64,000 nucleotides of DNA, taken from positions 32,001 to 96,000 of IMG/VR virus record IMGVR_UViG_3300025011_000019. One strand, given 5' to 3'. This document shows, piece by piece, positions 10,992 to 30,958 of this stretch (the stretch's first letter is position 1; the number at the start of each line of letters is the position of its first letter). Made by a program: the position numbers and the translations under genes. Origin of the DNA: a virus. A model generated the notes under the pieces. The model worked only from the letters and a program-made list of their open reading frames with translations, had not been told where the DNA came from and did no database searches.

Positions 10992-11144
10992 ATGAAATAC
11001 GAAGTAACTAAAAAATTCATCGGCGGGATCTTAAAGGGATTAAATCACACTAGCATTACCTCAGTAAAATTCGAAGTTGGATTCACCTGTAGGGATTCAA
11101 TCGGAGGCAGTCCTTATAAAATAATTTCCTGTAATCCAGTGTAA
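10992..11144 (+). CDS. 50-aa hypothetical protein, not in the ORF track
   Basis: Promoter TTGACT-16-TATACT (10924-10951), GAAGGGAG RBS, MKYEVTKKFIGGILKG..., hairpin at 11150-11173. Confidence 0.65.
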   Translation: MKYEVTKKFIGGILKGLNHTSITSVKFEVGFTCRDSIGGSPYKIISCNPV

Positions 11145-12730: not shown

Positions 12731-13786
12731 ATGCCAAAATTAGTATCTTATGAAGAAAATCACAGAATTAATGAAAATGAAGAATTGGAAAAGTTATGCA
12801 GTAAACATTATATCTATTTCCCTGAAGAAAGTTCTTGGTTTCCTTGTAATGATAAATATTTTAATAAAAATCCAACAAATACTAAAGACGGCTTAAATGG
12901 ACTATGTAAAAAATGTTTAGGTAAAAATAGTAAAAAATACAATAAACCTAAAAAACCTAAAAACATAATACCAGAAAGATTACAACAAACTTATGAAAAT
13001 ATGAGACAAAGATGCTACAATCCTAATGCAAAAAGTTATAAATATTATGGGGATAAAGGAGTTATTATTTGTGATGAATGGTTAAAAGATAGAAAAACTT
13101 TTTATAATTGGGCTTTGTCTAATGGTTATGAAGAAAATCTAACTATTGATAGAAAAGATACTAACGGAAATTACGAACCAAATAATTGTAGATGGATAAC
13201 TCATAAAGAGCAACAAAACAATAAAACAAATAACGTATTTATTGAACACGAAGGGGAAGTAAAAACAGTATCACAATGGAGTGAAGAAACTGGAATTAGT
13301 GGTAACTCTATAAAAGGAAGATATGAGAAAGGGAAAAATATTATGGAAGATTATTTCCACATAAAAATAAGTATAAACGGAGAGATAAAAACACTAATAG
13401 AATTATCGGAAGAATATGAAATACCATATTCAGCAATGTTAGATAGATACCACAAAGGCTGTAGTTCAGAAGATTTAATTAGGGATCTTGAACCAAGAGA
13501 GACTAAACATATAGAAATTAACGGAGAAATACATACGATTACGGAATGGGCCGAAATTTCAGGTCTAACAAGAGAAATAATTATAAATAGAATAGCTTAT
13601 GGATGGAATATAAATGATTTATTAAAACCTAGAACAAGAGAGGGTAGAAAGAAGTATATAGAAATAAATGGGACTAGTCACACAGTTCCAGAATGGTGTG
13701 ATATTATTGGAATAAGTCCTGTTGGAATGTATAATAGAATTAAGAAAGGACTAAAAGGAAATGATTTATTAGCACCAGCAAAGTAA
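12731..13786 (+). CDS. HNH homing-type endonuclease with four C-terminal DNA-binding repeats
   Basis: MRQRCYNPN...YG.KG..ICDEW...LTIDRKDTNGNYEPNNCRW; repeats of IEINGE.KT..EW......I..R; N-terminal Cys motif. Confidence 0.85.
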   Translation: MPKLVSYEENHRINENEELEKLCSKHYIYFPEESSWFPCNDKYFNKNPTNTKDGLNGLCKKCLGKNSKKYNKPKKPKNIIPERLQQTYENMRQRCYNPNAKSYKYYGDKGVIICDEWLKDRKTFYNWALSNGYEENLTIDRKDTNGNYEPNNCRWITHKEQQNNKTNNVFIEHEGEVKTVSQWSEETGISGNSIKGRYEKGKNIMEDYFHIKISINGEIKTLIELSEEYEIPYSAMLDRYHKGCSSEDLIRDLEPRETKHIEINGEIHTITEWAEISGLTREIIINRIAYGWNINDLLKPRTREGRKKYIEINGTSHTVPEWCDIIGISPVGMYNRIKKGLKGNDLLAPAK

Positions 13787-13796
13787 TTAAATAAAA

Positions 13797-13834
13797 GACA
13801 AAAAGACTAAGTATAAATATCTAGTCTTTTTGTC
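13797..13834 (+). terminator. Intrinsic terminator, possibly bidirectional
   Basis: gacaaaaagacta...tagtctttttgtc. Confidence 0.75.
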
Positions 13835-13912
13835 TTCAGAAGCTTTAAATTGTTTATAAAATATCTACAATAAAATAGGACTCCATAAACAAGTAATATA
13901 TAAAAGTTTTCC

Positions 13913-13941
13913 TTGACTTATTTAGTTCATTACTATAAAAT
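13913..13941 (+). promoter_or_regulatory. sigmaA promoter of the long leader operon
   Basis: TTGACT-17-TAAAAT. Confidence 0.7.
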
Positions 13942-14106
13942 AGGGAACATAAGAGGGAGCAAACAAAAACCTCTTAGCACTTAGAAAAGTCAACTATTCA
14001 CTTGAATCGAAAAATAAATGTACATAAGGAGGGCCAACAATCACAAAGTATCTTGTGGCGTGACTAGGAAAACAACCTAGCATGAATTCTTTAAAAAGAG
14101 TTGAGA

Positions 14107-14124
14107 TGATCTTTGAAAACTGAA
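14107..14124 (+). promoter_or_regulatory. rRNA-type boxA antitermination element
   Basis: TGATCTTTGAAAACTGAA matches the Firmicutes rrn boxA (TCTTTGAAAACT); a second boxA-like GCACTTAGAAAAGTCAA at 13977-13993 follows a hairpin. Confidence 0.7.
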
Positions 14125-14489
14125 TTAAGAGACTAGCCAGCCAACACTTGTCAAATAACATACATTAGAGTATTCTATCTTAGAATATCCTCTGAGGGTT
14201 ATAATCAAGAACGTGGTAAAAAATTCGAGTGCGATATGGGCTAGTATAAATTTCTTTTATCTTATCTAATTCTCTATCCTTTCTAAATTCTAGCATATGG
14301 GATATTCCCTCTATATCAAAATTTTCTTAACAGCGTCCCTTAGTCGAATGATGATCTAAGACAGCCAAAAGAAAATAAAGATACACGGAATACAAAATAT
14401 GTTAGATTTTATAAAGGATAGAGGAAAGGATAAAAACATTCTAGGGATATGCTCCTGTTAGTGCCTACTCAAAAGGAGTATGATAATTT

Positions 14490-14765
14490 ATGATAGCTTT
14501 AATTTCTTCTGATTATATCGTTAAAAATCACTTCGAGGAAATTGTGGATAATTTTCCTCAATTAAAGGTATTCAATACTAACGATGAAATAATCAGAAAC
14601 GAAGAAAATTATAACCAATTCGATCAAATTTGTTTTTGTAATTTCGAAATAACAGCCTACACTTCTATGAAAATTTCGAAATATGCTCCAGAAAAGAAAA
14701 TACAATTTTCTGATTTATACAGTTTGAAAAATTATCTTTGCAAATTAAAAAACATTCTTAACTAA
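14490..14765 (+). CDS. 91-aa hypothetical protein looped out by a 26-bp stem
   Basis: AAAAGGAG RBS; flanked by the inverted repeat 14443-14468/14776-14801. Confidence 0.65.
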   Translation: MIALISSDYIVKNHFEEIVDNFPQLKVFNTNDEIIRNEENYNQFDQICFCNFEITAYTSMKISKYAPEKKIQFSDLYSLKNYLCKLKNILN

Positions 14766-15049
14766 AAATTAAAATGTAGGCATTAACAAAAGCATATCCC
14801 TTAAGCAAAAAAAGAGAGAATTAACCTAAAACATTCTACTAAATCCCTTCAGTTTATTCATTATTACTATTTAATCATAACAATTGCTTTAAACTTGCAT
14901 AACAAAATTAAAATGCAGGTTGTTGTAATTTAATGCTAAATTGTCTATGCTATAGGCTGAAGGGATTGAATTTTCCATAAGGTGTGAGCTTATAACAATT
15001 GGAGTTTAGACCTTGTGCAAAAATTTAAGAATGAAAGAGGTTGTGTAAA

Positions 15050-15637
15050 ATGGCAAAGGTAAGAGAATTAAAACTTTACACTTTAGAAACTACTAATTAT
15101 CTCGCAGTGGTAGAAGCTCATACAAAAGCTGAAGCCATCGAAAAAAGTGATTTCACAAAAAGTCAAGTAATTGTCAGGGAGGCCACGGAAGAAGATATAA
15201 ACTATTTAAAAGCAATGGGAGGGTATATAGTTAGGTAAAATCATAATCCATTAAAAAAGACAATTTATGGGAAATGAAGTGCTTTATAATACTGGATTAT
15301 AGAGCACTTTGAATTTTATTAAACTATGTACTAAGCAAAAATAATTAGTTTGTATTTTAGTAAAATAAAAGGAGTGGTCAGAATGACAAAAGATACCATT
15401 CAGGCACTAAATGAAAACAAACGATTCACTATAACCATGATGAATAAAAATGGTTATACAGTCATGAGAAAATTTTCTACCATTCAATCCTGCAAGACCT
15501 TTGCAAAACATTTTCCTTTGTCTGTATTCTTCGCTTGGATTTATGACAAGTCAAAGGACGCTATAATAATGCAAAATAATTATAGCGACAAGTTATATAA
15601 ATGTAACGAAGAATCATTTATTCCTTATTGGTGTTAG
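15050..15637 (+). CDS. Two small hypothetical proteins (about 15050-15238 and 15383-15637)
   Basis: RBSs; each is preceded by a hairpin. Confidence 0.65.
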
Positions 15638-30856: not shown

Positions 30857-30958
30857 ATTAACTGGTCTGATCCAGTATAAAACGCCTTAAGCTCAGAGCG
30901 TTAGCAGGGTTCATAACAATCCTGCTAGGTGGTATCAAAAAATAGGAGGTGCAATAAT

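Follow-up and report, generated by a model that had tools for sequence, protein, structure and literature searches.

BoxA-dependent modification of RNA polymerase is textbook knowledge for the E. coli rRNA (rrn) operons, lambda and T7, and to our knowledge the biochemistry of the Gram-positive rrn complex has only just begun. In T7, genetic evidence identifies a boxA behind the early host promoters A0-A3 as an N-independent antitermination element (PMC3709561). BoxA also occurs beyond rRNA, in the leaders of clustered regularly interspaced short palindromic repeats (CRISPR) and of suhB (PMC13753749, PMC5725501). For B. subtilis, the rrn boxA consensus AUGAUCUUUGAAA was reported in 2026; it follows a small hairpin and binds BsNusB by nuclear magnetic resonance (PMC13753749). 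Here we describe a leader in a 64,000-nucleotide (nt) stretch of viral DNA, hereafter the window, which comprises bases 32001-96000 of the 146-kb IMG/VR virus record IMGVR_UViG_3300025011_000019 (~29% GC; 88% complete). Since an exact and conserved boxA follows a host-type promoter there, just where the terminators cease and a long polycistron starts, our best reading is that the element serves to modify host RNA polymerase. Belief and doubt being about evenly balanced, we favor an N-independent, rrn- or T7-like boxA leader that would recruit host Nus factors for a long, probably early, operon.

The core features of the leader are as follows (positions are those of the window).

13913-13941, + strand: sigmaA-type promoter P2, TTGACT-17-TAAAAT, with hexamers conserved in relatives
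13950-13976, + strand: 5'-terminal hairpin of 7 bp with a 13-nt loop (fold z-score -4.2), kept in close relatives
14026-14032, + strand: orphan Shine-Dalgarno (SD) sequence, AAGGAGG, lacking a start codon within working distance
14085-14102, + strand: small hairpin predicted by folding, 7 bp with a UAAA loop, 3 nt 5' of boxA
14106-14124, + strand: rrn-type boxA, ATGATCTTTGAAAACTGAA, an exact consensus match
14132-14246, + strand: domain 1, a 115-nt multi-helix RNA with a 7-8 bp closing stem, identified by its fold and by compensatory changes

The boxA agrees with the B. subtilis rrn consensus at 13 of 13 positions. It lies 165 nt 3' of the conserved promoter, on the sense strand, in a stretch free of open reading frames (ORFs): there are no + strand ORFs of at least 40 amino acids (aa) between 13786 and 14490. 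This is the single exact match in the genome, where base composition leads us to expect an exact 13-mer ~0.03 times; matches with up to two mismatches occur at chance level. The identical 19-mer is present in at least 120 bacterial genome stretches, from Bacillota and other phyla. Rfam annotation of 10 of these loci put the 19-mer ~120-140 nt ahead of 16S in L033 and L102, and within the 16S-23S spacer in L042 and L086. Among 80 such loci inspected, many of them at contig ends, the usual order was promoter, small hairpin, boxA, and the hairpin-then-boxA order in the phage is that of Bacillota rrn leaders (PMC13753749).

Eleven related leaders were gathered from viral and metagenome contigs by protein- and pattern-based scans, so that our comparisons cover 12 leaders; a blastn search of the leader against cultured phages and plasmids gave 0 matches. 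The initial annotation of this DNA had staked its proposal of an antitermination leader on the conservation of boxA in homologous leaders, and we found boxA in 11 of the 12. A degenerate pattern, YRNTCTTT[GC][AT][ACT]AAYT, occurs once per locus in these 11 and always in the leader (~100 kb scanned), and boxA variants persist where the flanks cannot be aligned (TGTTCTTTGATAACT in G001, CGCTCTTTGACAATT in L006 and CGTTCTTTCTCAACT in L010). Several other elements of that annotation were likewise borne out, namely the promoter, the ORF-free stretch after it, the 5' hairpin, and a boxA described as near-canonical that proves to be an exact 19-mer. A first "boxA-like" site, GCACTTAGAAAAGTCAA, has to be dropped, as it fits no boxA pattern and varies among relatives.

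The same 19-mer was also seen in other settings. In a Syntrophaceae metagenome-assembled genome (L084, 6288-6306) it lies in a CRISPR leader, between the cas2 stop codon and the first repeat, a position that agrees with published accounts of CRISPR arrays being read through in a boxA-dependent way. A longer conserved block, ATGATCTTTGAAAACTGAATARTRYGGTAT, is found in intergenic DNA away from rRNA genes, both in Clostridia genomes (L031, L051, L057, L075, L081, L089, L098) and in viral contigs (L151, L152, L154). Either a pemK RNA motif or integrase genes come after the 19-mer in L097 and L098. BoxA may thus be widely borrowed by mobile elements of Bacillota.

We call P2 a promoter because its hexamers are conserved while the spacers differ: the 11 relatives retain TTGAC(A/G/T) or TTGCAA together with TAAAAT or TATAAT, and their spacers diverge. 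Judged by density alone, promoter-like sites in this AT-rich DNA are no more frequent than chance. Transcription would start near 13948, which places the orphan AGGAGG 80 nt from the presumed 5' end in the window and 30-100 nt from it in relatives. The AGGAGG is present in 12 of 12 leaders despite diverged flanks, and in none of them does an ATG, GTG or TTG stand 5-10 nt from it. This arrangement resembles STAB-SD, an SD-like 5' stabilizer of Gram-positive mRNAs (PMC4113751): a perfect SD-like AGGAGG that lacks a start codon is set in a 5' untranslated region, close to the 5' terminus and preceded by a 5' hairpin. As in STAB-SD elements, an SD-like motif within the 5' untranslated region does not initiate translation, and we therefore consider the phage AGGAGG a candidate 5' mRNA stabilizer of the STAB-SD type, its stabilizing effect being putative and assigned by likeness.

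Domain 1 follows boxA and belongs to the constant core. It folds better on the + strand (z-score -3.2, -30.2 kcal/mol) than on the - strand (-1.45, -24.6 kcal/mol). In the distant relative G001, compensatory changes occur in its closing stem (ACUAGCC/GGCUAGU versus ACCAGUC/GACUGGU) and in an inner hairpin, and the outer pair shows U-A and G.U variants in L025 and L029. The domain predicted at 14132-14245 therefore holds up, with its 3' boundary here at 14246. Domain 1 co-occurs with the 5' core module in nine leaders and is always linked to this type of boxA. One could argue from this that the constant core of boxA and domain 1 (~300 nt) works in cis as an antiterminator RNA like put, EAR or canT, binding and modifying RNA polymerase directly, with boxA as an accessory. 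This would be the idea of the initial annotation, narrowed to the conserved part. The strand-specific fold, the covariation in G001 and the constant company of domain 1 and boxA fit such a view, and canT, conAn and EAR are known to head long operons of Gram-positive mobile elements (PMC11658703). However, L006 and L010 have boxA without domain 1, and the sequence 3' of their boxA has no significant fold (z-scores 0.2 and -0.4), so that a conserved structured domain after boxA was rejected for these two leaders. Rfam gives no match, EAR included, at E-values up to 10; few terminators lie downstream; and the first genes, which vary among relatives, include no conserved gene for a partner protein. 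We consider a polymerase-binding RNA of this sort unlikely. We also tried the closing stem of domain 1 and its U-rich tail as an attenuator and rejected the idea, as the U tract is not conserved in L021.

The remainder of the leader consists of four further modules.

14255-14435, + strand: optional long hairpin RNA of ~180 nt (z-score -6.6, covariation)
14443-14801, + strand: optional cassette, a 26-bp bracket stem (14443-14468 / 14776-14801) around a gene
14842-14967, + strand: AUAACA hairpin 3a with a 14-bp closing stem, identified by fold and covariation
14976-15017, + strand: AUAACA hairpin 3b, with the ATAACA at 14992 in its terminal loop

When the modules are mapped across leaders, the 5' core (13948-14131) and domain 1 are inseparable, and the 3' part (14809-15040), which consists of the two separable AUAACA hairpins, is in every mapped leader. 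Constancy is thus confined to ~300 nt (13948-14246) and the pair of AUAACA hairpins (14842-15020); the long hairpin is missing in some relatives, and so is the stem-bracketed segment. In the minimal leader of L021 and L028 (~540 nt), domain 1 directly adjoins the 3' part. Because the map shows optional, swappable segments, the "1-kb leader" of the initial annotation is a constant leader of ~300 nt with separable cassettes stacked behind it. The idea of a single antitermination RNA of ~1 kb is accordingly not supported: its modules are separable, two of the four "large domains" are optional, one of these encloses a protein gene, and Rfam finds no match. The search found no family on the leader either at gathering score (whole window) or at E-values up to 10 (13700-15400), nor any family for the leader modules of eight related loci at gathering score. 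Because of this lack of a match on the leader, the families suggested for checking (ROOL, GOLLD, OLE, EAR, group I/II introns) are rejected.

The long hairpin is real but optional, being absent from L021/L028 and from L025. It has conserved unpaired blocks, CGAAUGAUG and GCCAARA..AAAURAA, and double changes at 16 of its 34 pairs, and its G.U cells far exceed its A.C cells. The two strands fold equally well in the window sequence, and the + strand is favored only because of the covariation and G.U counts of the relatives. For the segment at 14443-14801, the 26-bp stem stood up to comparison, but the segment does not belong to the leader as an RNA domain, being instead an optional cassette around a real gene that is missing from L007, L021, L027 and others. 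The bracketed gene (14490-14765, SD at 14473) encodes 91 aa with no Pfam or PHROG match, and differs from its L010 counterpart by 11 synonymous and four non-synonymous changes. In L025, the same bracket stem, with two compensatory changes, surrounds an unrelated 64-aa ORF. Judged from these sequences, the stem behaves like a holder of swappable gene cassettes. Bracket-stem cassettes lie at ~2770-3090 in L025 and at 6050-6420 in L010, both on the - strand, and AAAACATTCTA occurs on either side of the bracketed insertion in the window (14434, 14829). We rejected the bracketed ORF as a mobile miniature inverted-repeat transposable element, as there is no second copy in the genome.

Hairpin 3a, also predicted initially, carries AUAACA in an internal loop (14877) and at its terminal loop (14899), and folds with a z-score of -7.0 (-38.5 kcal/mol) on the + strand and -3.0 (-27.4 kcal/mol) on the - strand. 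It shows C-G / U-A / U.G covariation with many G.U-to-A-U switches, and is 88-95% identical in relatives, ahead of differing first genes. Hairpin 3b (z-score -4.1, -17.5 kcal/mol on the + strand; +0.5, -4.7 kcal/mol on the - strand) ends 17 nt 5' of the SD (15034-15040) of the first gene (15050-15238). In relatives, hairpin 3a is sometimes split by insertions and 3b is sometimes replaced. The tip of 3a (equivalent to 14905-14950) carries insertions of ~200 nt in L029 and ~560 nt in L023, with more ATAACA, and in L023 a whole small gene sits between 3a and 3b; the loops of the AUAACA hairpins are insertion hot spots.

This extreme modularity, with modules inserted and swapped, together with one leader that lacks boxA, might be taken to mean that the locus is a recombination-scarred intergenic mosaic whose boxA is a functionless chance match or a passively acquired host fragment. 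The rarity of the exact 13-mer, whose sole match falls in the leader on the sense strand, speaks against this view, as do the persistence in place of boxA variants between unalignable flanks and the covariation of the folded modules. We regard a functionless mosaic as highly improbable.

The leader lies at a change in gene architecture, and two further features belong to its upstream edge.

13795-13836, + strand: terminator hairpin, a 20-bp stem followed by a T run, identified as an inverted repeat and in the terminator map
13844-13871, + strand: candidate weaker upstream promoter P1, TTTAAA-16-TACAAT, possible

Up to 13.8 kb, a strong terminator follows each gene; the hairpin at 13795-13836, which terminates the upstream HNH endonuclease gene, is the last in this one-terminator-per-gene series. 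Past the leader there are only weak terminator candidates, at 15276, 25656, 30754 and 36917. The change of gene architecture noticed earlier is therefore confirmed, with the strong terminators ending at 13.8 kb. A block, CAATAAAATAGGACT, at P1 is common to relatives and conserved in L007, L010, L026 and G001, and a direct repeat (D2) has its two copies at 13866-13879 and 13931-13944. The gene directly 5' of the leader (12731-13786, + strand) is an HNH endonuclease by PHROG match (E-value 6e-69), and in L021 another HNH-like gene, different from that of the window, stands at the equivalent place. All genes to the right of the window start are on the + strand, and those to its left are on the - strand. 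A replication origin at the leader was rejected, as GC skew has no turning point there and reaches its minimum near the strand switch at the window start. The host is probably a low-GC Bacillota bacterium because the closest cultured relative, reached through a methylase-helicase protein (45% aa identity), is Clostridium phage D-1873.

The operon itself has a distinctive RNA organization. ATAACA is the most enriched + strand hexamer of 14.1-38.6 kb, with 58 copies against 4.3 expected from the remainder of the genome. These copies (extended form H-ATAACA-R) lie within 14155-38520 on the + strand (24.5 kb), in coding and non-coding DNA alike, and elsewhere in the genome the hexamer occurs 0-2 times per 4 kb on that strand. 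In four relatives ATAACA likewise starts just past the 5' core, and the boundary is sharp. The initial annotation also cast the leader as the master element of an AUAACA regulon, a conjectural role; what the sequences show is this shared starting point. Of the four sites first noticed in the leader, those at 14877, 14899 and 14992 belong to hairpins 3a and 3b. The one at 14155 falls outside the set of loop AUAACA elements because it is base-paired, AUAAC with GUUAU, and is not conserved (AUAAU in G001 and L024). We also considered whether ATAACA might be a promoter like that of AR9 (AACA-N6-TW) and rejected this, since the downstream context, judged by eye, does not fit. Rfam matches the window only once, in a Pistol ribozyme (30861-30934, + strand). 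This ribozyme and the twister-P5 ribozymes of four relatives are in sense orientation within the ATAACA-rich operon.

L007, 7567-7628 and 11063-11127: twister-P5
L006, 12564-12629: twister-P5
L027, 9780-9842: twister-P5
L010, 724-788, - strand: twister-P5

Two of these ribozymes overlap an ATAACA copy (30913 of the window in Pistol; 11082 of L007 in the twister at 11063-11127). Judging from these sequences, RNA-level cleavage probably divides the polycistron.

Such an organization could be reconciled with a boxA that works without antitermination, either as a decoy, an abundant early RNA that takes NusB-S10 away from host rRNA synthesis, or as the site at which a Nus-loaded RNA chaperone is assembled for long-range helices. 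The promoters are strong and possibly tandem, several covarying long-range helices lie 3' of boxA, and the operon holds self-cleaving ribozymes. A chaperone role for Nus factors has been proposed for rRNA, and the helices to be served here would be domain 1, the 26-bp bracket, the AUAACA hairpins and the ribozymes. One boxA per genome is weak for titration, however, and the long helices, unlike the nearly constant boxA, are optional. A decoy or chaperone role is, in our view, quite unlikely.

An element that heads a transcript and binds Nus factors could also act negatively. Nus factors repress suhB through its boxA, promoting Rho termination (PMC5725501), and boxA-bound factors in the phage could in the same way repress translation or promote Rho termination before the first genes. 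In single-sequence and consensus folds, the 5' half of boxA can indeed pair with upstream sequence that includes the AGGAGG region. However, boxA lies 370-940 nt 5' of the first translated gene across leaders, far beyond the distances tested for suhB, and no ORF follows the nearby AGGAGG. We consider a suhB-type negative element very unlikely. Within 14041-14115, alternative pairings of the boxA 5' half are predicted either with CAAAGUAUC (14044-14054) or with the AAGGA of the orphan SD, and such pairings could gate the access of NusB or of the 30S subunit.

Several points weigh against our preferred reading, a boxA leader of the rrn or T7 kind. L007 shows no recognizable boxA, though its promoter, AGGAGG and downstream modules are in place. 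In close relatives, boxA is no more conserved than its flanks. The predicted pairing of its 5' half would compete with NusB binding. We infer, and do not observe, the start site and the read-through, as we do Nus binding, antitermination and the stabilizer function. Because the intrinsic terminators downstream are so few, there is little obvious need for antitermination, and antitermination has not been demonstrated even for the rrn operons of B. subtilis (PMC13753749).

The boxA-leader reading nevertheless draws on observed sequence identity, conservation, RNA structures and operon architecture. The exact conserved boxA, the host promoter and the long operon support the part of the initial annotation that has the leader modify RNA polymerase, while its casting as a single ~1-kb RNA of the put/EAR/conAn type is not supported. 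As we picture it, the leader would head a long phage operon that is transcribed by the host polymerase, probably early. The 5' hairpin and the orphan AGGAGG would most likely shield the 5' end from 5'-to-3' decay. BoxA in the nascent RNA would be bound by host NusB-S10 (NusE), which with NusG and NusA would turn the host RNA polymerase into an rrn-type antitermination complex. No N-like phage protein would be needed, an arrangement as in rrn operons and the T7 early leader. We found no phage-encoded NusG. The complex would then pass through 0.5-1.1 kb of untranslated structured RNA (the optional long hairpin, the optional bracketed small gene and the first two AUAACA hairpins making up what follows the core ahead of the operon genes) and on through the ~24-kb operon. 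Protection from Rho seems the most plausible benefit to the operon.

A bolder proposal is that the hairpin-boxA-domain 1 core represents a new class of Bacillota-phage leader that combines antitermination with RNA chaperoning and forms one control system with the AUAACA elements. We think this unlikely, but if it were true, the core would make of the host polymerase an rRNA-style machine that transcribes, folds and processes a protein-coding polycistron, with AUAACA hairpins, bracket stems and self-cleaving ribozymes lying between its cistrons. Short of that, a ~24-kb terminator-free operon that opens with an exact Bacillota rrn boxA offers a natural and compact test case for whether Nus complexes act on mRNA operons in these bacteria, and what they would protect against. 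The RNA organization of this operon, with its AUAACA hairpins, bracketed swappable genes and Pistol and twister ribozymes, is unusual, and knowing how its transcription is launched is a prerequisite for understanding it.

How, then, does the leader compare with known systems? HK022 put, B. subtilis EAR, Tn916 canT and pLS20 conAn are, like the phage leader, structured RNAs heading very long operons, and canT, conAn and EAR are antiterminators of Gram-positive mobile elements (PMC11658703). However, the leader has no Rfam match, which is a partial test since Rfam may contain no model of put, canT or conAn. Those systems also work without boxA, which the canT paper never mentions (PMC11658703), and in the phage the structured parts are optional or variable and downstream terminators are scarce. 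With the lambda nut sites, the leader shares a boxA on nascent early-operon RNA followed by RNA structure. The structure differs, being a 115-nt multi-helix domain (absent from L006 and L010, where the sequence 3' of boxA is unstructured) and no small boxB-type hairpin, and there is a single site in place of a nutL/nutR pair. No N-like gene was recognized in a search that was not exhaustive, the small ORFs near the leader having no Pfam or PHROG match.

The rrn leaders and spacers, whose boxA works with NusB, NusE/S10, NusG, NusA and SuhB, have the identical 19-nt boxA with a small hairpin just 5' of it, strong and possibly tandem sigmaA promoters and, downstream, a long RNA that is untranslated and highly folded and has bracket helices of long range. 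In contrast to rrn, the phage element would drive protein-coding genes, and its boxA lies ~160 nt from the start, after an orphan SD, where that of rrn comes right after the first hairpin; no boxC was identified in the phage leader.

The T7 early leader is similar in its use of host RNA polymerase and strong early promoters, and in placing boxA ahead of a long early transcript (PMC3709561). The phage leader differs from it in host phylum, its boxA being of the Bacillota AUGAUCUUUGAAA type, and is far longer, modular and structured. Where the T7 early transcript is punctuated by RNase III sites, the phage operon is punctuated by AUAACA hairpins and ribozymes. A boxA leader is thus already in print for T7, and what distinguishes the present one is its exact Bacillota rrn boxA, its orphan SD, and its place at the head of an AUAACA- and ribozyme-bearing operon.

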